Part shown: in pieces, positions 1,495 through 59,830 of the stretch
Numbering within the stretch: the stretch's first letter is position 1
Layout: each line of letters opens with the position of its first letter
Origin: Bacteroidales bacterium
Lineage (GTDB): Bacteria > Bacteroidota > Bacteroidia > Bacteroidales > VadinHA17
DNA length: 64,000 nt
Assembly: GCA_034004025.1 (NCBI GenBank)
Contig: JAVEXM010000001.1
Coordinates: 4,203-68,202 of the forward strand
Direction of reading: 5' to 3'
Translations under genes and position numbers: made by a program
The notes under the pieces: model-generated
Database searches by the model: none
Seen by the model: the letters and a program-made list of their open reading frames with translations, nothing else
What the model was told of the DNA's origin: nothing

Positions 1495-1506
1495 AGGTCC
1501 TGATTT

Positions 1507-1661
1507 TCAGTCTTCAGCCTACAGTCACCAGTCTTCAGTCCTGACTGCCGACTGCCGACTGCGATTGCCGACTGCCGACTGCAACTGCCGACTGCCGACT
1601 GTCGACTGCAACTGCCGACTGCGATTGCCAACTGCCGCATGCGACTGCCGACTGCCGACTG
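1507..1661. repeat. CAGT/ACTG-core 6-7 nt microsatellite array, locus 1 (5 units in CAGT orientation, then 18 units in ACTG orientation)
   Basis: Hand-parsed units: tcagtct tcagcct acagtca ccagtct tcagtcc | tgactg ccgactg ccgactg cgattg ccgactg ccgactg caactg ... ccgactg ccgactg. The array starts 13 nt after the TAA stop at 1492-1494. Confidence 0.9.
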
Positions 1662-3197: not shown

Positions 3198-6100
3198 TTA
3201 GAATGAGAGGTTTATACCAAGAGTATAGGTCCTTGCCTGCGGTGCAGTGTAGAAATCATAACCCTGGATAATGTTGTTGTTCTGCGTTGACCTGCCGGCT
3301 CCCAGATAGTTTACTTCAGGGTCCCATCCCTTGTACTTTGTCAGCGTATAGAGGTTCTGAACGCCAACATAGACTCTTACTGAGGACATGTTAATCCGTG
3401 ACGTCAGACTCTTGGGCAGTGTATAACCCAGGTTCACGTTTCTGAACCTGACATATGAACCGTCTGAGAGATATCTGCTTGACTCCTTCGTGCCGTTTCC
3501 GTCGCCAAGGCGTGCCTGGGGCACATCTGTGATGTCGCCCGGCTGTTGCCATCTGTTCATCTGGTCCACCGTCTGGTTGTCAAACCAGTCGCCGTTGGCC
3601 GACTGGTAAACACCGGCACCGTTGTAGATTTCATTGCCGTATACAAAGCTGATAAGCACGTTGAGATCTATGCCTGCATATTCAAAGTAGTTGTTGAAAC
3701 CGCCTGTAAAGTCAGGGTTGGGCGATCCAACTATCTGCTTCTCGGCAATGTTGTAGTTGTTTGTTGTCTCATCGCTGTCGGCGCTGATATAGTAAAGGGC
3801 ATCACCGTTTTCCGGATCCACACCTGCATATTTAACGATATTAAATACACCTATAGGCTGACCTTCCATAACATAGTTGATCGAGTTGGGTGTGATCTCA
3901 GGTCCGTTTATGTCGATGATGGTGTTCTTGTTAAACGCCATGTTGAAGTCTGTTGTCCAGATAAATTCACCGGTAAGGTTGTTTGAATGGATTGAGAATT
4001 CCACACCCTTGTTCTCCAGTTCACCCACGTTGCTCCAGACCCCTTCAAAGCCCGATGTTGCGGGAAGGGTTCTGTAAAGGAGCAGGTCAGTGGTTTTCTT
4101 CTGGTACCAGTCGAATTCACCTGTGATCCTGTTGTTAAAAAAGCCAAAGTCAAGGCCGAGGTTAAGCTGAGCGGTATTTTCCCATCCCAGTTCCCTGCTC
4201 TGCAGCTGCGTTACCTCCAGTCCTGTCCGACCGGCATAATTGACACCTGAATAGAGTGCAAGGTGGGCATAATCGGGAATTCCCGAGTTACCTGTGATAC
4301 CATAGCTGGCTCTTGCCTTCAGGTAGCTCAGGACATCCCTTATTCCTGACATGAAGTCCTCCTGGGTGATTATCCACCCGGCCGAGCCGGCAGGGAAGAA
4401 TCCGAACCTGTTGTCAATGCCGAATCTCGACGAACCGTCAACACGGCCGCTGAGGGTAAAGAAGTACTTTTCATTGATCTTGTAGTTTGCGCGTGCAAAG
4501 TAAGAGAGATATGAGGTAGCTTCCTCCCATCCACCGTAGGTAGTTACCTCGGCAGCGTTGCTTATGTTGGTAAAATCATCAGTAGGAAATCCTTTGCCGA
4601 CGATATCTGAACCAATGCTGTTTGACTGCTGGTATGACATACCTCCCACGAGGTTGATATGGTGAACGCCAAGCGTCTTTATATAGGTCAGGTAGTTTTC
4701 CCAGTTATAGTTGATAACCCTGACAGAACGGTTCTGTGCTTCACCTGCCGGTCCGCCGGTGATTGTCTCCCTGCCCCAGAAATTCTTCTCCCTAAGGTCA
4801 TATATGTCAGTACCAAACTCGCTCTTGAAGGAAAGGTCCTTATAAATCTTGTAGGCAGCATAGATGTTTGCCAGCGACCTGAACGATGTCTGGTTGTTGG
4901 TTTCGTCCCTGAGGGATATAAGGCTGTTATAATAAATGGTCTCAGTATTCAGCTCGCCTGTCTCCGGATCATAGACAGGGGTGAGGGGCGACTGTGCCAC
5001 GAGCTGCAGCGGGGTAGCGAATGCGTTGTCGTTCTGCACGCGTTCCATCTCAGTGCGGATGACGTTCATCTGCATGCCGAAGCTGAACTTTTCGGTAGCC
5101 TGCTGGTCAAGGTTGAGCCTTGCGCTCATCTTGTTCATGTTGTTGCCAAGAAGGATGCCTTTGGTATCGTCATATGAGAGGCCCGCATAATACCGGGTTT
5201 TTTCAGTACCACCAGATCCGGATACGTTGATCCTGTTGAGCGATCCTTTCTGAAAAGCCTCCTTCTGCCAGTCGGTATCGTAACCGTCATCCCATGTTGG
5301 GCCAACATACATTTCCCATATATCCTCCTTCGGAAGCCAATCCCATACCAGTCCGCCAACGGAGACGTTCTCCATGGACTCATTGAAGAGCTCAAGGTAC
5401 TGGTCGGCATTCAGCCACTCAACCATCCGGCTGGGCTCACTGATACCGGTAGTATACTGTACATCAAATTTTGTGGCACCCGCCTTGCCTCTCTTGGTCT
5501 GGATGATTACCACACCGTTTGAGGCCCTTGAGCCGTAGATGGCTGCTGCTGATGCATCCTTCAGGATCTGTATTGACTCCACATCAGTCATTGCAAGGTC
5601 AGCCAGCGGGCTGGTAGGCTGGTTCCCTGAATTGGAGAGGTTTTCTGCTGTGATAGGCACACCATCAACTACATACAGGGGCTGGTTGTTTGCTGAGACA
5701 GATGATGACCCACGGATCCTCATCTTCACCGTCTCGCCCAATTTTCCGCTGGCCTGCTCTATGAATACACCCGAGGTCTTACCCTGGATAGCCGACTCAA
5801 AGCTGGCAGAAGGGATCTCGGCTATACCCTTTGTCTCAACCTTGGTGATAGCTCCGGTGAGTTCCCTCTTAATGGCCGAACCATAACCAACGACAATGAC
5901 CTCATCAAGGCCCACATCATCAAGTTCCATAGTTACATTGATAACATTTCCGGTGCCGACCACAATTTCCTGTGACTTCATCCCTACATACCTGAAAACA
6001 AGGGTATTGCCAGGTTCTGCTGTGATGGAGTACTTTCCGTCCATGTCTGTGGCTGTTCCAACAGAGGTACCCTGGACAAGGACTGTGGCACCGATGACGG

Positions 6101-8371: not shown

Positions 8372-8449
8372 ATTTTTCCGATAGATTGTTGAGTAACTTT
8401 GTGCAAATTTATAAAAAAAGCAGACCGGTATACGGATTGTTGGAAGAAA

Positions 8450-9868
8450 ATGAGGAAGGAGAATATCTGCAATCTTCTGGAAAAGAATCTGGGATACATA
8501 CCTACCGCGGATCAGTCCGACTGCATGCGTCTGCTCGCGGAATTCATCGTTGCCAATACCAATGATGTGATCTTCCTGTTGACCGGTTATGCCGGCACGG
8601 GCAAGACCAGCGTCATTGCCTCGCTGGTGAGCACTCTCACCACTCTTCGCCAGAAATCCGTTCTTCTCGCACCAACGGGCAGGGCCGCCAAGGTTCTGAA
8701 ATCCTATTCAGGCCAGGAGGCTCACACCATCCACCGGAAGATATACAGGCAGAAGTCGGCCACTGACGGGGTGGGCAAGTTCGTTCTTGACCGCAACCTT
8801 CATAAGGACACATATTTCATTGTGGATGAGTCGTCTATGATACCCGATGAATCATCTGACGGCTCAATGTTCGGCAGCGGGAAGCTGCTTGAGGATCTGC
8901 TGGAATATGTATATACCGGCCGCGACTGCAAGCTGGTGCTTGTGGGTGACGTGGCGCAGCTGCCGCCGGTGGGGTCGATTGTCAGTCCGGCCCTGGATGA
9001 GAATGTGCTTCGCGCCACCGGTTTTGCCCTTGAGACCTTCGAGCTGCGCCAGGTGATAAGGCAGAGCGAGGGTTCAGGCATACTGATGAATGCCACCGCC
9101 GTGAGGCAACAGGTGAACGACGGAGACCTGTCGGTGCCGGAACTGGTGCTGCAGCCATATAACGATATTGAGAGGCTGAGCGGCAATGACCTGATTGAAA
9201 GGCTCAGTGAGTCATATGACAGGTGCGGTACTGACGGTGCCATTGTAGTGGTCAACTCCAATAACCTGGCCAACAGGTATAACCAGGGAATCCGCAACCG
9301 TGTCTTTTACCGTGAGGAGGAGATAAGCACAGGTGACATCGTCATGGTTGTCAAGAATAATTATTACTGGCTCCGCGACGAGGAGAACAGTTCATTCATT
9401 GCCAACGGCGATATAGCCGAGGTGCGAAGGATCAGGAAATTCGAGGAGATGTACGGCCTGCACTATGCCGACATGACGCTCTGGTTTCGTGATGCGGAGT
9501 TGGAACTCGATGCCAAGGTGATGCTGGACACCCTCACTCTGCCCACCCCGTCACTCACTGCTGAGAAGTCGCGTGAGCTCTATTTCACCGTTCTGGCTGA
9601 TTATCCTGAAATACGGTCGAAGCGTAAACAGTTCGAGACGGTAAGGAACGACCCCTACTATAATGCCCTGCAGATCAAGTTCGCCTATGCCGTCACCTGC
9701 CACAAGTCGCAGGGCGGACAGTGGGAGAGGGTCTTTATTGACCAGGGTATGTTCAACCGGCAGGAGCCTACCATCGATTACCTGCGATGGTTTTACACGG
9801 CGCTGACAAGGGCGACGGAGAAGGTGTACCTGGTAAACTTCCCGGATAGCTGGTTCAGTCGGCAGTAG
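8450..9868 (+). CDS. RecD-like ATP-dependent DNA helicase (SF1)
   Basis: Walker A GYAGTGKTS, Walker B FIVDESSM, and C-terminal AYAVTCHKSQGGQW. I prefer the ATG at 8450 over the TTG at 8399 given by the ORF track. Confidence 0.8.
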   Translation: MRKENICNLLEKNLGYIPTADQSDCMRLLAEFIVANTNDVIFLLTGYAGTGKTSVIASLVSTLTTLRQKSVLLAPTGRAAKVLKSYSGQEAHTIHRKIYRQKSATDGVGKFVLDRNLHKDTYFIVDESSMIPDESSDGSMFGSGKLLEDLLEYVYTGRDCKLVLVGDVAQLPPVGSIVSPALDENVLRATGFALETFELRQVIRQSEGSGILMNATAVRQQVNDGDLSVPELVLQPYNDIERLSGNDLIERLSESYDRCGTDGAIVVVNSNNLANRYNQGIRNRVFYREEEISTGDIVMVVKNNYYWLRDEENSSFIANGDIAEVRRIRKFEEMYGLHYADMTLWFRDAELELDAKVMLDTLTLPTPSLTAEKSRELYFTVLADYPEIRSKRKQFETVRNDPYYNALQIKFAYAVTCHKSQGGQWERVFIDQGMFNRQEPTIDYLRWFYTALTRATEKVYLVNFPDSWFSRQ

Positions 9869-10034
9869 CAGTCGGCAGTCAGCAGTAGCAGTCGGCAGTC
9901 TGCAGTACCAGTCGGCAGTCAGCAGTACCAGTCGGCAGTCGGCAGTAGCAGTCGGCAGTAGCAGTCGGCAGTCAGCAGTACCAGTCGGCAGTCGGCAGTA
10001 GCAGTCGGCAGTCAGCAGTACCAGTCGGCAGTAG
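9856..10034. repeat. CAGT-core 6-7 nt microsatellite array, locus 2 (27 units)
   Basis: The units are cagtcgg (x12), cagtcag (x4), cagtctg (x1), cagtag (x6) and cagtac (x4). A 40-bp higher-order block (cagtcgg cagtcag cagtac cagtcgg cagtcgg cagtag) occurs at 9909-9948 and 9962-10001. The helicase TAG stop (9866-9868) lies inside unit 2. Confidence 0.9.
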
Positions 10035-10047
10035 TCGTTTCAGCGAC

Positions 10048-10113
10048 GAAATCGCAAATCGCACATCACAAATTCGTAAGTCAGACATCGCAAATCCCAA
10101 ATCGCAAATCCCT
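10048..10113. repeat. second heptamer array with an AAATC core (about 9 units)
   Basis: gaaatcg caaatcg cacatca caaattc gtaagtc agacatc gcaaatc ccaaatc gcaaatc. The 7-nt period holds throughout, and the array ends about 20 nt before the next ORF start. Confidence 0.8.
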
Positions 10114-10134
10114 TATGCTGCGGTTTGATTATAT

Positions 10135-11499
10135 TTGTGCTTTCTCCGACGGGTGGAAATCAATGAAAAACTAACATACCGCAGGATCTTCCTGTTCTGG
10201 AGCCCCCTGGCTCTTACATGGCTGATGATGGCTGTGGAGCAGCCGTTCCTGATTGCTTTTGTGGCCAGGCTGGCTGAAGCGAAGATCAATCTTGCGGCTT
10301 TCGGAATCGCAGGCTCCTTTGCCATGATCATCGAGGCCCCGATAATCATGCTGATGAGCGCCTCCACTGCTCTTGTCACGGGACGGCACTCATATCTGAA
10401 ACTAAAAAGGTTCACCGATATCCTGAATGCCGGTATCACCGGCGTGCAGCTTGTCATACTTATCCCGCCGGTATTCAGGTTCATTGTTACTGATCTCATG
10501 GGAGTGCCCGAGGATGTTGCCAGGCTGGCACACATCGCACTGATAATTTTCCTGCCGTGGGCCGCATCCATCGGTTACAGGAGGTTTTACCAGGGTATCC
10601 TGATCAGGTATAACCTTACAAGGCGGGTGACATATGGCACCATGGTCCGGCTTTCAGTCATTGTTATAATGGGACTGATCCTCTATTCTGCAGGAATAAA
10701 CGGGGCATACGTCGGCGCCGGGGCTATGTCGCTGGCGGTCCTGTGTGAAGCAATAGCAACCCGAATGATGGCTGCGGGAACGCTGAAGAGCCTGCTGCAG
10801 AAAGAGGATAGCGAGAACGGTCATATAGGACTCAGATCCATCACCAGGTTCTATTATCCGCTGGCTATCACCTCAATACTGTCTCTCGGGGTTCATCCCT
10901 TTGTCACCTTCTTCCTCGGAAGGAGCTATATGGCGGTGGAGTCGCTGGCCGTACTTCCGGTTGTCAGTTCGCTGGTATTCATCTTCAGGAGCATAGGACT
11001 GTCATACCAGGAGGTGAACATCGCCCTGATCGGGCGGCAAAAACAGAACTACGGCCTTTTGAGGAATTTTGCAGTCTATCTGGGGATTATAGTAACGGTG
11101 CTGGTCACCTTACTGGCCTTTACTCCTCTCGCTGACCTGTGGTTCATAAACATCTCGGGTCTTACCCAGGAGCTTGCCGATCTCTCATATCTTCCTCTTC
11201 AGATAATGATCCTACTGCCTGCTCTGACAATACTTCTTAATTTCCAGAGATCCCTTCTTATTATCAACGGGACCACGGGCCCGATATCTAAGGCTACGGC
11301 AGTGGAGCTCATCTCCATAATCGTTGTCCTGCTTGTGTGTGTGGTATTCCTGAACATGGCAGGGGTGGTCGCCGCCGCCATTGCATTTACGATCGGCAAG
11401 TGCATGTCAACACTTTACCTGGTACCCAGGCAGGCGGCTGCCGTTAAGGGATGGAAGGTATTATATCCCAGGGTATTTGCAGCAAGTAGTAATGCTTGA
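10135..11499 (+). CDS. polytopic membrane protein, MATE/MOP-flippase-superfamily-like
   Basis: 454 aa with about 12 hydrophobic segments. The N-terminal pattern (IFLFWSPLALTWLMMAVEQPFLIAFVARLAEAKINLAAFGIA) resembles MATE-type transporters. The start codon is uncertain (TTG at 10135). Confidence 0.5.
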   Translation: MCFLRRVEINEKLTYRRIFLFWSPLALTWLMMAVEQPFLIAFVARLAEAKINLAAFGIAGSFAMIIEAPIIMLMSASTALVTGRHSYLKLKRFTDILNAGITGVQLVILIPPVFRFIVTDLMGVPEDVARLAHIALIIFLPWAASIGYRRFYQGILIRYNLTRRVTYGTMVRLSVIVIMGLILYSAGINGAYVGAGAMSLAVLCEAIATRMMAAGTLKSLLQKEDSENGHIGLRSITRFYYPLAITSILSLGVHPFVTFFLGRSYMAVESLAVLPVVSSLVFIFRSIGLSYQEVNIALIGRQKQNYGLLRNFAVYLGIIVTVLVTLLAFTPLADLWFINISGLTQELADLSYLPLQIMILLPALTILLNFQRSLLIINGTTGPISKATAVELISIIVVLLVCVVFLNMAGVVAAAIAFTIGKCMSTLYLVPRQAAAVKGWKVLYPRVFAASSNA

Positions 11500-11582
11500 T
11501 TGTCTTCAGCACGACTGCGGATACTGAAATCCTGTTCCGTAGTATTACCGTTCCTGTGCGACGCGGGCCCTGAACCGTTCTG

Positions 11583-16233: not shown

Positions 16234-18366
16234 ATGAGTGAAAACAAGGAAAAGGTCGAAAACAAAGAAAATGAAGACCTTAATTTAACAGAGAGCGGAG
16301 CTGAGAATAAGGGCACAGAAGAGGTTGCCGCGGAATCAACAACTGAAGAGGTGTCCGAAGAATCAACAACCGAAGAGGTTGCCGCAGAATCAGCACCCGA
16401 AGAGGTTGCTGCAGAATCAACAACCGAAGAGGTTGCCGCAGAATCAGCACCCGAAGAGGTGGTTACTGAGTCGGCAGGCGAGATGGTTGAAGAAGAGAAA
16501 CCCATCCTGAAGGAAAAGAAAGAAAAAAAGGTGAAGGCTGGAGATGCTGATGCTGCGGTAGCAGCGGCAGCAGCGGCGGCATCACCTGAAGAATTTGACT
16601 GGGACGCCTATGAAAAAGGAGGCTTCACGGCGCAGTCGAGCCGTGCTGACCAGGAGAAGCTCTACGAAGAGACTCTCTCAACAGTGGCTGTTGACGAGGT
16701 TGTCGAGGGCAAAGTGATCTCGATGAACAACCGCGAGGTAGTTATCAACATCGGGCAGAAGTCCGAGGGTGTTGTCAGTCTGAACGAATTCCGCTACAAT
16801 CCCGACCTCAAGGTTGGAGATATGGTGGAGGTTTATGTCGACAGCCAGGAAGACAAGAGGGGGCAGCTCGTTCTCTCGCACAAGAAGGCCAGGGCTTACA
16901 ATTCCTGGGACAGGGTCAACTCGGCCCTTGAGAACAATGAGATCATCACCGGTTACATCAAGTGCCGCACAAAGGGCGGTATGATTGTAGATGTCTTCGG
17001 CATAGAGTCGTTCCTGCCGGGTTCGCAGATAGATGTCAAGCCCATACGCGACTATGACGTCTATGTTGGCAAGACCATGGAGTTCAAGGTTGTAAAGATC
17101 AACCAGGAGTTCAAGAACGTTGTTGTTTCGCACAAGGCTCTCATTGAGGCCGAGCTTGAGCAGCAGAAGAAGGAGATCATCTCCAAGCTTGAAAAGGGAC
17201 AGGTCCTCGAGGGTACTGTCAAGAACATCACCTCCTACGGTGTATTCATTGATCTGGGCGGCGTTGACGGGCTCATTCACATCACCGATCTTTCATGGGG
17301 CAGGGTCAACCATCCCGAGGAGATTGTACAGCTTGACCAGAAGCTGAATGTGGTTATACTTGACTTTGATGACGACAAGAAGCGGATAGCTCTCGGGCTG
17401 AAGCAGCTTACGCCTCATCCGTGGGATTCGCTCAGTGAGACACTCAAGGTTGGTGACACCGTCAAGGGCAAGGTTGTTGTGATGGCCGATTACGGTGCCT
17501 TTGTAGAGATCACCACCGGTGTTGAGGGGCTCATTCATGTCTCTGAGATGTCATGGTCACAGCATCTTCGCAGTGCCCAGGAGTTCATGAAGGTAGGCGA
17601 CGAGGTTGATGCGGTGATACTCACCCTCGACCGTGAAGAGCGCAAGATGTCTCTGGGCATCAAGCAGCTTAAGCCCGACCCGTGGCAGAATATCGAACAG
17701 AAGTACAGCCTCAATTCGCGTCATAAGGCACGTGTCCGTAACTTCACCAACTTCGGCGTCTTTGTTGAGATTGAAGAGGGTGTCGACGGTCTGATACATA
17801 TTTCAGACCTCTCCTGGACAAAGAAGATCAAGCATCCTGCTGAGTTTACCTCCATTGATGCGGAGATCGATGTGGTTGTTCTTGAGATCGACAAGGATAA
17901 CAGGAGGCTCAGCCTGGGCCACAAGCAGCTCGAGGAGAACCCCTGGGACGTGTTCGAGGATCTCTTTACCGTTGATTCGGTGCATGAGGGAACAATAATT
18001 GAACTGTTTGACAAGGGTGCCATTATAGCTCTTCCTTACGGTGTTGAGGGGTTTGCAACTCCCAAGCACCTGGTCAAGGAAGACGGCACGGCAGCTGCCG
18101 CTGACGAGAAGCTCGATTTCAAGGTAATAGAGTTCAACAAGGGTGCCAAGAAGATCATCGTGTCACACAGCCGTATATATGAGGACGTGAAGAAGGGTAC
18201 CGAGACCGCATCAAAGAGGTCGGAGGCAGAAAATACAAGGAAGGCAACCCGCAAGATCAAGTCCAGTCTTGAGAAGACAACGCTCGGAGACATCAGTGAA
18301 CTGGCGGCCCTGAAGGAAGAGATGGAAGAAAAAGAGGCCAGAAGTATAGGTAAAAAGAAAAAATAA
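16234..18366 (+). CDS. rpsA: 30S ribosomal protein S1 with an acidic repeat-containing N-terminal extension
   Basis: 710 aa. From about aa 125 (EEFDWDAYEKGG...) it reads as a canonical six-S1-domain protein. The N-terminal 120 aa or so are extra. Confidence 0.9.
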   Translation: MSENKEKVENKENEDLNLTESGAENKGTEEVAAESTTEEVSEESTTEEVAAESAPEEVAAESTTEEVAAESAPEEVVTESAGEMVEEEKPILKEKKEKKVKAGDADAAVAAAAAAASPEEFDWDAYEKGGFTAQSSRADQEKLYEETLSTVAVDEVVEGKVISMNNREVVINIGQKSEGVVSLNEFRYNPDLKVGDMVEVYVDSQEDKRGQLVLSHKKARAYNSWDRVNSALENNEIITGYIKCRTKGGMIVDVFGIESFLPGSQIDVKPIRDYDVYVGKTMEFKVVKINQEFKNVVVSHKALIEAELEQQKKEIISKLEKGQVLEGTVKNITSYGVFIDLGGVDGLIHITDLSWGRVNHPEEIVQLDQKLNVVILDFDDDKKRIALGLKQLTPHPWDSLSETLKVGDTVKGKVVVMADYGAFVEITTGVEGLIHVSEMSWSQHLRSAQEFMKVGDEVDAVILTLDREERKMSLGIKQLKPDPWQNIEQKYSLNSRHKARVRNFTNFGVFVEIEEGVDGLIHISDLSWTKKIKHPAEFTSIDAEIDVVVLEIDKDNRRLSLGHKQLEENPWDVFEDLFTVDSVHEGTIIELFDKGAIIALPYGVEGFATPKHLVKEDGTAAAADEKLDFKVIEFNKGAKKIIVSHSRIYEDVKKGTETASKRSEAENTRKATRKIKSSLEKTTLGDISELAALKEEMEEKEARSIGKKKK
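16318..16479 (+). repeat. in-frame 27-bp x6 tandem repeat (EEVAAESTT / EEVAAESAP units) inside the rpsA 5' region
   Basis: Six consecutive 9-aa units, EEVAAESTT EEVSEESTT EEVAAESAP EEVAAESTT EEVAAESAP EEVVTESAG, parsed by hand from 16318. Confidence 0.9.
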
Positions 18367-51934: not shown

Positions 51935-51936
51935 GG

Positions 51937-52031
51937 CAGTCGGCAGTCAGCAGTCGGCAGTCGGCAGTCGGCAGTCGGCAGTCAGTAACTAATTGATTGA
52001 CTGCCGACTGAAGGCTGAAGACTGAAGACTG
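51937..52031. repeat. CAGT/ACTG-core heptamer array, locus 3 (7 CAGT-oriented units, 12-nt spacer, 5 ACTG-oriented units) forming a 13-bp perfect hairpin
   Basis: cagtcgg cagtcag cagtcgg x4 cagtcag | taactaattgat | tgactg ccgactg aaggctg aagactg aagactg. The stem pairs 51972-51984 with 51998-52010. The array begins 3 nt after the pntB stop and ends 1 nt before the stop of the convergent gene. Confidence 0.9.
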
Positions 52032-52032
52032 A

Positions 52033-58567: not shown

Positions 58568-59830
58568 ATGAAATCCATATTATATATGTTTTTTGTCCTG
58601 CTCCTGGCAGGATTCACCGCATGTGCCCCGAAGTCTGATCCCGGTCATAAATCAGATGAGGAACATGACCATGAGACTGTAACCACCGGTGCCCATGAGG
58701 ATGAACATGACCATGCGACTCTCACCACCGGTGCAGACGGGGATGAACATGACCATGCGACTCTCACCACCGGTGCGGACGGGGATGAATATGACCATAC
58801 AACTCTCGCCACCGGTGCGGATGATCATGAAACTGCGCATTTTGAGATCCTGACTATCACGAGGCAACCATTTTCTTTTGTTTTGAAGACCGGAGGCCGG
58901 ATCATGGCCGATAACCGGGATCTGGTCACGATCACTTCCAAATCATCAGGACTGGTGAAGTTCAGTGAGGATTTTTTACTTCCGGGAGTGAAGGTTGCGC
59001 GAGGAGAGTCGCTCTTTACCGTTGCCGGCGAACAGCTGGCAGATGATAACACGGATCTTAGATTCCGGCAGATCAAGTCTGATCTGGACCGTGCCAGAAT
59101 GAATTTTGAAAGGGCCGAAAAGCTTATTGTCGAAAAGATAATAACAGAAGAACATTACCTTACGGTGAGGAATGAGTATGAAAAGATTCGTAGCGAGTAT
59201 GATAATATTGCGGCCACATACAGTACGGGTGGGAGCAGGATAATCGCGCCGGCTGATGGCTACATTCGCGACATTCATGTTGCCGAGGGTCAGAAGGTCA
59301 CTGCAGGTCAGCCTCTGGCAACGGTGATATCAGGGCGCAGGCTTGTTCTCAGGGCTGATGTCAGGCCCGATGACCTCTCCACCGTTACATCAGTGGTGAG
59401 TGCCAATTTCCGGGTTGGGTACAGTGACAAAATATTCAAAACCGTTGATATGAACGGCCGTAAGATATCCTACGGCAAGAGTACGGGTGAGAGTTCTTTC
59501 TTAATCCCTGTCTACTTCAGTATTGATTATGACCCGGAGCTTATCGAGGGGACATATGCTGAGGTTTATCTCATCGGCAGACAGACAACTGATGCCTTGA
59601 CGGTCCCTGACAGTGCGCTTATGGAGGAGTTCGGAAGACTCTACGTGTTTGTGGAGCATGAAGATGGCGATTTTGGCAAGAGGTACATCACCGCCGGCTA
59701 CAGTGACGGGGAAAAGACCCTGGTGCTTTCAGGGCTTACTGAGGGTGAACGTATAGTTGCTTCAGACACTTACCTGGTCAAGTTGTCTCAGATGTCTTCC
59801 TCTGCGCCGGCACACAGTCACACCCATTAA
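58568..59830 (+). CDS. efflux RND transporter periplasmic adaptor (membrane fusion) lipoprotein with a His/Asp-rich N-terminal repeat
   Basis: 420 aa with the lipobox LLAGFTAC. The coiled-coil/barrel-sandwich body is typical of CzcB/CusB-like adaptors, and it is followed by a CzcA/CusA-type gene. Confidence 0.85.
   Translation: MKSILYMFFVLLLAGFTACAPKSDPGHKSDEEHDHETVTTGAHEDEHDHATLTTGADGDEHDHATLTTGADGDEYDHTTLATGADDHETAHFEILTITRQPFSFVLKTGGRIMADNRDLVTITSKSSGLVKFSEDFLLPGVKVARGESLFTVAGEQLADDNTDLRFRQIKSDLDRARMNFERAEKLIVEKIITEEHYLTVRNEYEKIRSEYDNIAATYSTGGSRIIAPADGYIRDIHVAEGQKVTAGQPLATVISGRRLVLRADVRPDDLSTVTSVVSANFRVGYSDKIFKTVDMNGRKISYGKSTGESSFLIPVYFSIDYDPELIEGTYAEVYLIGRQTTDALTVPDSALMEEFGRLYVFVEHEDGDFGKRYITAGYSDGEKTLVLSGLTEGERIVASDTYLVKLSQMSSSAPAHSHTH
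58655..58822 (+). repeat. in-frame 42-bp x4 tandem repeat encoding (D/G)(D/E)EHDH(A/E)T(L/V)TTGA(D/H)
   Basis: Units are DEEHDHETVTTGAH, EDEHDHATLTTGAD, GDEHDHATLTTGAD and GDEYDHTTLATGAD (aa 30-85 of the adaptor). Confidence 0.9.

Follow-up and report, generated by a model that had tools for sequence, protein, structure and literature searches.

A strain-variable CAGT-core heptanucleotide array at the end of a Bacteroidales helicase gene and its strand-polar repeat family

What kind of element is a tandem array of seven-nucleotide units that contains the stop codon of a helicase gene? The question is raised by a 64,000-nucleotide stretch of an uncultured Bacteroidales bacterium (GenBank assembly GCA_034004025.1, contig JAVEXM010000001.1, positions 4,203 to 68,202 of the forward strand), which is called the window below and in which three loci carry arrays built on the core CAGT. 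Locus 2, the array in question, lies at the 3′ end of the helicase gene, and loci 1 and 3 lie elsewhere in the window (Table 1). Bacterial heptanucleotide tandem repeats have been catalogued since about 1990 and, to our knowledge, no function or source has been assigned to them. The array at locus 2 is genuine and hypervariable, and it belongs to a family with strict orientation rules. With moderate confidence, it is read here as a hypermutable heptanucleotide simple sequence repeat (SSR) from a CAGT-core family (GGCAGTC, TTCAGTC and their variants) that is dispersed and strand-polar and is linked to intervening sequences (IVSs) and to genes of the S23p/IVP family (PF05635, IVP below).

Cut at each CAGT, the 179 bases at 9856-10034 of the forward strand give 27 units of 7 or 6 nucleotides: 12 CAGTCGG, 6 CAGTAG, 4 CAGTCAG, 4 CAGTAC and 1 CAGTCTG. 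The five unit types and the total of 27, which an earlier note had read from the sequence, are exact on recount. Its 40-bp higher-order repeat (9909-9948 and 9962-10001) is also exact, without differences, though the duplicate is really 51 bp long (9909-9959 and 9962-10012) and has a 53-bp period, on which Tandem Repeats Finder (TRF) agrees. By unit counts, G makes up 35% and C 27% of the sense strand. The helicase ends in ...FSRQ*, encoded by TTC AGT CGG CAG TAG within the array, so that the stop is embedded in unit 2 as had been claimed; the single orientation of the array and the co-directional neighbours hold on the sequence as well. A two-unit probe, GGCAGTCGGCAGTC, allowed up to 2 mismatches, has 34 matches in the window against 0.43 expected (100 shuffles, maximum 3), and 33 of the 34 fall inside the three loci, at 1543-1663, 9867-10020 and 51935-52012. 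Locus 2 therefore shows the head-to-tail units of about 7 nucleotides that mark the heptanucleotide SSRs, known also as short tandemly repeated repetitive sequences (STRRs) or long simple sequence repeats (LSSRs), and, again as in that class, several intergenic loci of the genome (three in 64 kb) share one unit family.

Contigs of the same species, reached through identical YjbQ, SusD and peptidase proteins in several metagenome projects, are 99.5-99.95% identical to the window and hold at least four alleles of locus 2, with 16, 16′, 25 and 27 units. The 16-unit allele (L081, L084, L086) lacks the 51-bp duplication, which is a recent multi-unit event specific to the window allele. The 25-unit allele (L085, L088) has a duplicated block of 60 bp and 9 units that differs from the duplication in the window. 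In the 16′ allele (L083, L087), CAGTCAG replaces CAGTAG as unit 2, the TAG is lost, and the called helicase has 479 residues instead of 472, an extension of 7. The length variation that the earlier note had proposed to look for in the population is therefore present: flanks 99.5-99.9% identical enclose 16, 25 or 27 units. The same note had supposed that the helicase C-terminus might change with the number of units at the 5′ edge; an altered C-terminus is indeed seen in L083 and L087, but its cause is a 1-nucleotide indel within a unit and not a change in unit number. At locus 1, same-species contigs have 140, 167 or 174 bp of array-containing sequence between fixed anchors, so that copy-number polymorphism between strains, another mark of the SSR class, is found at loci 1 and 2; the length of locus 3 is constant in three same-species contigs. 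These counts come from short-read assemblies, which may miscount tandem units, and many contigs end within arrays. A metagenome scan with a 26-mer from the unique junction gave no match, though the sequence is present in JGI contigs that were reached otherwise.

Comparison with more distant relatives indicates how the stop codon may have come to lie inside the array. A sister lineage (L082, 93% identity) has no CAGTCGG array and a helicase that ends in FRE*, and other relatives have different heptamers at the position of locus 2. In L002 (86% DNA and 92% helicase identity), about 13 units stand behind an identical 3′ junction, and about 90 bp separate the helicase stop (FRQ*) from the array. 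The state of the window, TGGTTCAG|TCGGCAGTAG, is what would be expected from a deletion between two TTCAG motifs of L002. Given this putative deletion and the distance of about 90 bp in L002, the embedded stop appears to be recent and lineage-specific. The earlier note had named, as evidence that would count against it, related strains that keep the flanking genes without any array and show no difference in phenotype or expression; the first half of this pattern is found, since L082 and other relatives keep the flanking genes without this array. The array at locus 2 is therefore dispensable. Several relatives also have a hairpin insert of about 65 bp, GGGGCGAGCG...AATGACCCGGTGGGTCATT...GCAGGGGAGG, in an AGGCAGT mini-array directly after the helicase stop (L002 about 4100-4170; L082 8105-8040 on the minus strand; L003 and L014), which looks like a small mobile element; the window is without it.

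The other two loci of the window have two arms each. Locus 1 lies between convergent genes, and the mRNA of either flanking gene meets xxCAGUC first; a separate canonical hairpin and T-tract terminator stands beside it at 1683-1717. Locus 3 occupies the entire spacer, from TAG to TAG, between convergent pntB-like and peptidase_C26 genes, and its RNA hairpin is predicted at -66 kcal/mol (z -7.8). Counted over loci 1-3, all five arms in the window follow the same orientation rules.

The rules are better seen in metagenomes. At least 120 metagenome contigs contain (GGCAGTC)3, and their GC content ranges from 34 to 73%, which means that the motif is spread over many lineages. Gene calls for the polarity counts were crude longest open reading frames (ORFs), and the helicase-centred loci are mutually dependent. 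Among the matches listed, arrays within 20 nucleotides of a gene 3′ end have GGCAGUC in the mRNA sense in 26 of 30 cases (4 opposite), or 20 against 2 when flanking genes are limited to those verified by Pfam; arrays just upstream of starts are antisense in 13 cases against 1; and inverted pairs run GGCAGTC then GACTGCC in 18 cases against 0. These counts collapse to one rule: read inward from either flank, the strand is xxCAGTC. Both Pfam-verified exceptions to the sense rule are arrays that follow a PF05635 gene (23S_rRNA_IVP, bAvd-like). A transposable element of the miniature inverted-repeat kind (MITE) with defined ends or target duplications was considered and rejected, as the outer edges of the arrays directly abut stop codons and share no conserved terminal motif.

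A broader class of arrays behaves in a similar manner across the lineage. TRF was applied to 80 helicase-centred loci of related Bacteroidales and the window (950 kb), and the arrays with at least 4 copies numbered 42 at period 7, 17 at period 8, 1 at period 6, 6 at period 9 and 2 at period 10; the excess of period 7 over neighbouring periods that is typical of heptanucleotide SSRs is present in the lineage. Period-7/8 arrays are intergenic in 86 of 98 cases, while 87% of the DNA was called coding, and the majority lie within about 10 nucleotides of a stop codon. Convergent spacers are over-represented among those with arrays (34 arrays) and divergent spacers under-represented (8). The units vary between genomes and recur inside one genome. 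Of 42 stop-adjacent arrays that are unambiguous, 32 have a purine-rich sense strand (p 0.0009); the mean for stop-adjacent arrays is 33% G and 18% C in that strand compared to 19% and 20% in array-free 3′ flanks, and start-adjacent arrays in the relatives are A-rich, with C above G in 10 cases against 3. Local composition does not account for the strand bias, as array-free 3′ flanks have no excess of purine (184 vs 192) or of G (157 vs 184). A role as an all-frame stop buffer was likewise rejected: stop triplets occur in 15 of 42 sense and 11 of 42 antisense cases, compared to about 30% for random heptamers, and there is therefore no enrichment of stop triplets in the units.

The stop codons beside the arrays have a composition of their own. 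Genes that abut an array over-use TAG (19/56 against 64/377 array-free; odds ratio 2.5, p 0.006) in a sample of L001-L080 and L104-L223 whose helicase orthologues are mutually dependent. At the metagenome loci, TAG is the stop in 14 of 26 sense cases among the matches listed. One C-to-T change turns the CAG of the unit into TAG.

The two strands of the array differ in predicted folding as RNA. For locus 2 the predicted folding energy is -56.5 kcal/mol (z -6.07) in the sense RNA and -31.4 (z -0.25) in the antisense RNA; the strong sense fold arises because GUCGGC self-pairs through G-U wobble. For (GGCAGUC)12 the prediction is -47.5 vs -7.3 for the complement, and in the other unit families the sense RNA has the more stable predicted fold in 25 cases vs 11 (p 0.006). 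When locus 2 is folded as single-stranded DNA, both strands fail to beat their shuffles (z +0.36 and +2.06), which speaks against the slipped DNA structures that the earlier note had considered possible from the pyrimidine/purine asymmetry. Strand-specific structure is thus predicted in RNA pairing and not in DNA. Three other roles were set aside. The array has no GGG anywhere and could not form a G-quadruplex; its sense strand has more G than C and is predicted to be structured, which would be the reverse of a Rho utilization (rut) site; and a tandem RNA-polymerase pause signal (G-10 Y-1 G+1) would suit GGCAGTC and not the other unit families.

Arrays of this kind are closely associated with IVP genes. 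S23p/IVP is a relative of Avd, the accessory protein of diversity-generating retroelements (DGRs). Arrays of 7-9-nucleotide units flank IVP genes in 22 of 23 independent contexts, which include CAGT-core arrays in Bacteroidales. At the helicase and metagenome loci, all 7 IVP genes (four independent contexts) adjoin heptamer arrays and 6 of the 7 have arrays on both sides, with arms of GGCAGTC/GACTGCC or of GGTTGCT/AACCAGC, the latter just upstream of a helicase orthologue (L044, L027). GGCAGTC and GACTGCC/GACTGAA arms surround IVP genes in L106, L156, L212 and L239-L243, so that arms made of tandem 7-9-nucleotide units of the window's own family are found around such genes. Close Bacteroidota IVP homologues have CAGT-core arms in 5/5 contexts, including Williamwhitmania taraxaci and a murD|IVP|ftsW insertion. 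By this association, the arms of IVP cassettes elsewhere consist of arrays of the family, and in predicted folds of a GGCAGTC cassette and of an rRNA IVS the arms pair with each other over the ORF.

The association extends beyond the Bacteroidota. A tblastn search of plasmids found IVP genes almost solely in cyanobacteria, which are the classic heptamer-repeat taxa. Flanking arrays of 7-9-nucleotide units accompany 13 of 14 plasmid IVP genes, 9-10 of which have an inverted pair whose purine-rich arm is upstream, and one of these cases is a genuine 23S rRNA intervening sequence of Azospirillum with a stem built of heptamer arrays. As a control, 50 kb of a Nostoc plasmid have arrays in about 2 of 38 spacers, and an inverted pair brackets the IVP gene alone. 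Bacteroidota IVP proteins (P0001-P0120) are 69-95% identical across several orders and a 'Deltaproteobacteria' metagenome-assembled genome (MAG) and lie mostly on contigs of 1-2 kb, as would suit a gene that moves horizontally and whose flanking repeats interrupt assemblies. IVP clades may track unit sequences, as suggested by the GCAGGGGA units of Nostocales and the xxCAGTC units of Bacteroidota. In the Coxiella IVS, 2-3 strain-variable GACAGAT heptamers lie beside the S23p ORF, and RNase III excises the IVS (PMC4990558). A literature search found no paper that generalises the heptamer-IVP link beyond this Coxiella record, and none with a GGCAGTC array sequence.

Several further arrangements were noted. 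IVP cassettes with their arms lie inside operons in host-gene orientation (L233 492-851, L234 483-851, L236 486-842, L247 601-975). These cassettes separate cas6 from cas4 on plasmids of Pseudanabaena and Anabaena, cas10 from cmr3 in Picosynechococcus, and murD from ftsW in a Chitinophagaceae MAG. On a Nostoc edaphicum plasmid (L238), an ATTAGTC array at 4441-4486 overlaps the upstream stop in a co-directional spacer, and a C-rich TATTCCC array at 4615-4655 ends 4 nucleotides before the next start, a two-array layout like that of the locus 2 spacer.

The alleles show how the array changes: single units and multi-unit blocks of 27, 53 and 60 bp realign out of register, through replication slippage or unequal recombination, and the array lengthens and shortens in this way much faster than by point substitution. 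The rest of the mechanism can be proposed. Loci 1 and 3 may be ORF-less stems of an IVS-like element; both have the two inverted arms and long stem of such a cassette. Locus 2 has neither the two arms nor a PF05635 ORF between them, and it is therefore a relative and not a member of the IVS/IVP cassette class; it could be a solo 5′ arm that a deletion between two TTCAG microhomologies joined to the helicase coding sequence. Such an arm would be transcribed as the 3′ untranslated region of the helicase mRNA, and its GGCAGUC strand is modelled to pair with itself in GUCGGC/GUCGGC helices with G-U wobble and A-A mismatches between them. Where two arms meet, a long double-stranded RNA could form, an RNase III-type stem by analogy with rRNA IVSs. 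At locus 2 itself no locus-specific regulation would be expected, and the array would act as a structured, variable spacer that occasionally rewrites the last, non-conserved residues of the helicase.

Some observations weigh against this interpretation. A tblastn search of the 64-kb window with two IVP proteins found no IVP gene, and with a single arm and no such gene, the link between locus 2 and the cassettes depends on the unit family and on architecture seen elsewhere. TTCAGTC arms are not self-pairing. GGCAGTC also flanks IVP proteins just 31-35% identical to those of Bacteroidota, which tells against a strictly cognate match between protein and repeat, and IVP cassettes might merely insert into, or survive in, pre-existing arrays. 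The polarity counts use the crude gene calls and partly non-independent loci described above, and units can be miscounted in short reads where so many contigs break.

The best of the competing explanations is a neutral microsatellite, in which slippage acts on unconstrained DNA, mainly at gene 3′ ends, and IVP cassettes land there by chance. Slippage-type alleles at loci 1 and 2, the rapid turnover of arrays between species and the greater degeneracy of the outermost units are all as this account predicts. In published surveys, moreover, heptamers were the most frequent long SSRs of many genomes, for which a polymerase footprint was proposed as the reason (Mrazek 2007, as summarised in PMC4679880). 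Slippage alone, however, would give unrelated units at each locus, and one family occupies three loci of the window and several per relative genome. It would also give no strand rule, yet the counts among the matches listed are 26/4, 13/1 and 18/0; the arrays depart from background composition (33% G and 18% C against 19% and 20%); and arrays lie beside IVP genes in 22/23 contexts against about 2/38 control spacers. A neutral origin is accordingly considered unlikely, though it deserves to be taken seriously.

A bolder proposal goes further than the reading of locus 2 as an IVS/IVP-linked SSR, and holds that S23p/IVP (Avd-like) genes and heptamer/octamer arrays belong together as a single widespread selfish element. 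We consider this speculative and rather doubtful. If it were true, a four-helix-bundle protein would recognise or help to propagate its own tandem-repeat arms, and an RNase III-cleavable stem would let the cassette excise itself from rRNA and from cas6|IVP|cas4 or murD|IVP|ftsW mRNAs. ORF-less arrays, including the three loci of the window, would then be non-autonomous derivatives, and the unexplained STRR/LSSR heptamers of cyanobacteria, Xanthomonas, Bacteroidota and others would be accounted for.

A contingency locus, at which gain or loss of units switches or tunes the helicase or the downstream MatE-like gene by phase variation, is very improbable. Copy number does differ within the species, one allele shifts the helicase C-terminus by 7 residues, and heptanucleotide SSRs are described as controlling hmw expression in Haemophilus. 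Neither an early frame shift nor a change in promoter spacing is found at locus 2, however: the array begins at codon 487 of 489, beyond the last conserved helicase residue, no allele turns the protein off, and the array ends about 95 bp upstream of the putative -7 box. In addition, the population shows no variation in the promoter-adjacent AAATCGC array, relatives lack the locus 2 array, and the neighbouring genes are housekeeping genes and not surface genes.

We give as little credence to a DNA-level protein platform, in which the array would be a nucleoid or gyrase site like the repetitive extragenic palindromic (REP) sequences and bacterial interspersed mosaic elements (BIMEs), or an uptake signal like the DNA uptake sequence (DUS) of Neisseria, with tandem copies raising avidity. 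A genome-specific unit that recurs at 3′ ends and in inverted pairs does resemble REP/BIME and DUS, but the orientation rules follow gene ends, the asymmetry appears in RNA folding alone, and the units at one locus differ widely among close relatives. One 10-mer of locus 3, GCCGACTGAA, differs by a single mismatch from the Neisseria DUS core; as a single 10-mer, it was taken as coincidence. Least credible is an assembly artefact of array length or structure, which would suit the many Logan and other short-read contigs that stop inside arrays and a 27-unit allele known from the window alone, but which conflicts with eight other assemblies, drawn from two or more projects, in which flanks and unit order are the same, with three alleles each found at least twice, and with a 106-bp allele shorter than the k-mer size of the assemblers.

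Among known repeats, the closest kinds are the heptamer SSR/STRR repeats and, in Xanthomonas and Nostoc, the GGGAATC repeats, with TAACTGA and REP/BIME further off. Like locus 2, the STRRs of cyanobacteria and the LSSRs are 7-nucleotide tandem repeats that are intergenic, multi-locus and strain-variable, in genomes with an excess of heptamers; unlike them, locus 2 is from an uncultured Bacteroidales and has mixed 7- and 6-nucleotide steps and a higher-order repeat, and the account available gives the STRRs and LSSRs no strand rules or IVP link (Mrazek 2007, via PMC4679880). The GGGAATC or GGGGA(C/T)T repeats of Xanthomonas and Nostoc form a single heptamer family per genome, are rare in coding DNA and divergent spacers, and have the G-rich strand in sense within 50 bp of a stop or overlapping it and in antisense upstream of starts (PMC4692102). 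There are about 70 inverted GGGAATC-type pairs per Xanthomonas genome, and their length varies among close relatives (PMC4692102, Rehm et al. 2015). These positional rules are common to the GGCAGTC family, and the G-rich sense strand of locus 2 likewise overlaps a stop. The Xanthomonas and Nostoc units differ in their tracts of G3-4, read as G-quadruplexes, and in a preference for four units, whereas locus 2 has 27 units and lacks the four or more G3+ tracts of that class. The same positional pattern without a G3 tract means that G-quadruplexes are not needed for the pattern.

The remaining comparisons are less close. The 23S rRNA IVSs of Coxiella and Leptospira (Warrier et al. 2016, PMC4990558) share a terminal inverted-repeat stem with a four-helix-bundle ORF in the loop, and the Azospirillum IVS has heptamer-array arms, with intergenic GGCAGTC IVP cassettes predicted to fold alike. 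The window loci differ in being outside rRNA and ORF-less, and locus 2 is one-armed; RNase III processing has been shown for rRNA IVSs. TAACTGA repeats, found in Beggiatoaceae, Cyanobacteria and five Bacteroidetes, share the ACTG/CAGT core and an intergenic position (MacGregor 2015, PMC4679880). Their patchy spread across phyla suggests horizontal transfer, and in some Bacteroidetes long arrays stand beside other heptamers (PMC4679880). They lie mostly just before start codons in 2-6 copies and have a proposed role in translation, whereas locus 2 abuts a stop (PMC4679880). The units of the window family differ from REP/BIME in form, as tandem heptamers compared to imperfect palindromes of 20-40 nucleotides, and no transposase is associated here. 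REP and BIME are species-specific short repeats at gene 3′ ends, often in hairpin-forming inverted pairs, and their upkeep by a dedicated protein (RAYT) has been proposed. The candidate partner here, in place of the RAYT of REP, is a small Avd-like four-helix-bundle protein.

The genes and spacer around locus 2 complete the picture. Pfam finds AAA_30, AAA_19 and UvrD_C_2 in the helicase ORF, the last domain ending at residue 479 of 489, and the orthologues can be aligned only to residue 486; the tails beyond differ (FRQ*, FRE*, and longer ones in L004 and L009). Downstream of the CAGT-core array, a second heptamer array, AAATCGC, shows no variation among same-species contigs and has 3 units in L002. 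It fits the start-adjacent class in being A-rich with C above G, and its sense RNA is predicted to be unstructured, with (AAAUCGC)x12 at -4.8 kcal/mol vs -38.9 for the complement. Beyond it, TATATTTG matches the Bacteroidetes -7 promoter motif TAnnTTTG, and is presumably a promoter box. The MatE-like gene probably starts at GTG 10153, judging from conservation of the N-terminus and an ATG at the aligned position in L020. No intrinsic-terminator-like site (GC-rich hairpin and T tract) was found between 9868 and 10153, and Rfam 15 gave 0 matches at gathering score across the whole window.

Table 1. Features at and around the CAGT-core loci of the window (positions of the 64,000-nucleotide stretch)
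Feature	Coordinates	Strand	Source or conservation
Locus 1: (TTCAGTC)5 then (GACTGCC)~17, between convergent genes	1506..1661	.	
SF1 RecD/PIF1-like helicase gene; final four codons and TAG stop (9866-9868) are array units	8399..9868	+	Pfam
Locus 2: CAGT-core array, 27 units, GGCAGTC orientation, sense strand of helicase mRNA; read as a solo arm	9856..10034	+	
Two exact 51-bp copies, 53-bp period	9909..10012	+	
Unique junction between both arrays, weak 4-bp hairpin GTCG TTTCAG CGAC	10034..10047	+	Identical in L002
Second heptamer array, AAATCGC, ~8.7 units, A/C-rich; just 5′ of the promoter of the next gene	10049..10110	+	TRF
TATATTTG, putative -7 promoter box	10130..10137	+	Kept in orthologous spacers of L001, L002, L004, L006, L010, L016, L020
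MatE-like membrane protein gene	10153..11499	+	Pfam MatE
Locus 3: (GGCAGTC)7, 15-nt loop, GACTGCC, (GACTGAA)4	51935..52032	.	

Three further repeats were seen in the window. Where the MatE-like and YjbQ genes converge, their spacer (11500-11582) contains TCTTCAG...GACTGCG...ACTGAA, possibly the remnant of a decayed CAGT-core inverted pair. In-frame coding tandem repeats occur at 16318-16460 (27-nucleotide period, 5.3 copies), near the start of the gene for a 710-residue S1-domain protein, and at 58661-58821 (42-nucleotide period, 3.8 copies), within the ORF 58568..59830.

Taken alone, locus 2 is modest, and it is the polarity, the RNA-only asymmetry and the IVP association that give it weight. 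The positional rules of the Xanthomonas and Nostoc repeats extend to a unit that is incapable of forming a G-quadruplex, and the strand rule coincides with a pairing asymmetry that is predicted in RNA only. The repeat evolves fast enough to differ between strains and is able to rewrite the C-terminus of a protein, and heptamer arrays of this kind account for frequent contig breaks and variable gene ends in assemblies. The gene that is a candidate for its partner is small, highly conserved and apparently mobile or selfish, and is known mainly from rRNA IVSs and from a DGR homologue. The IVP link makes an old descriptive puzzle testable, and Williamwhitmania taraxaci offers a cultured relative.

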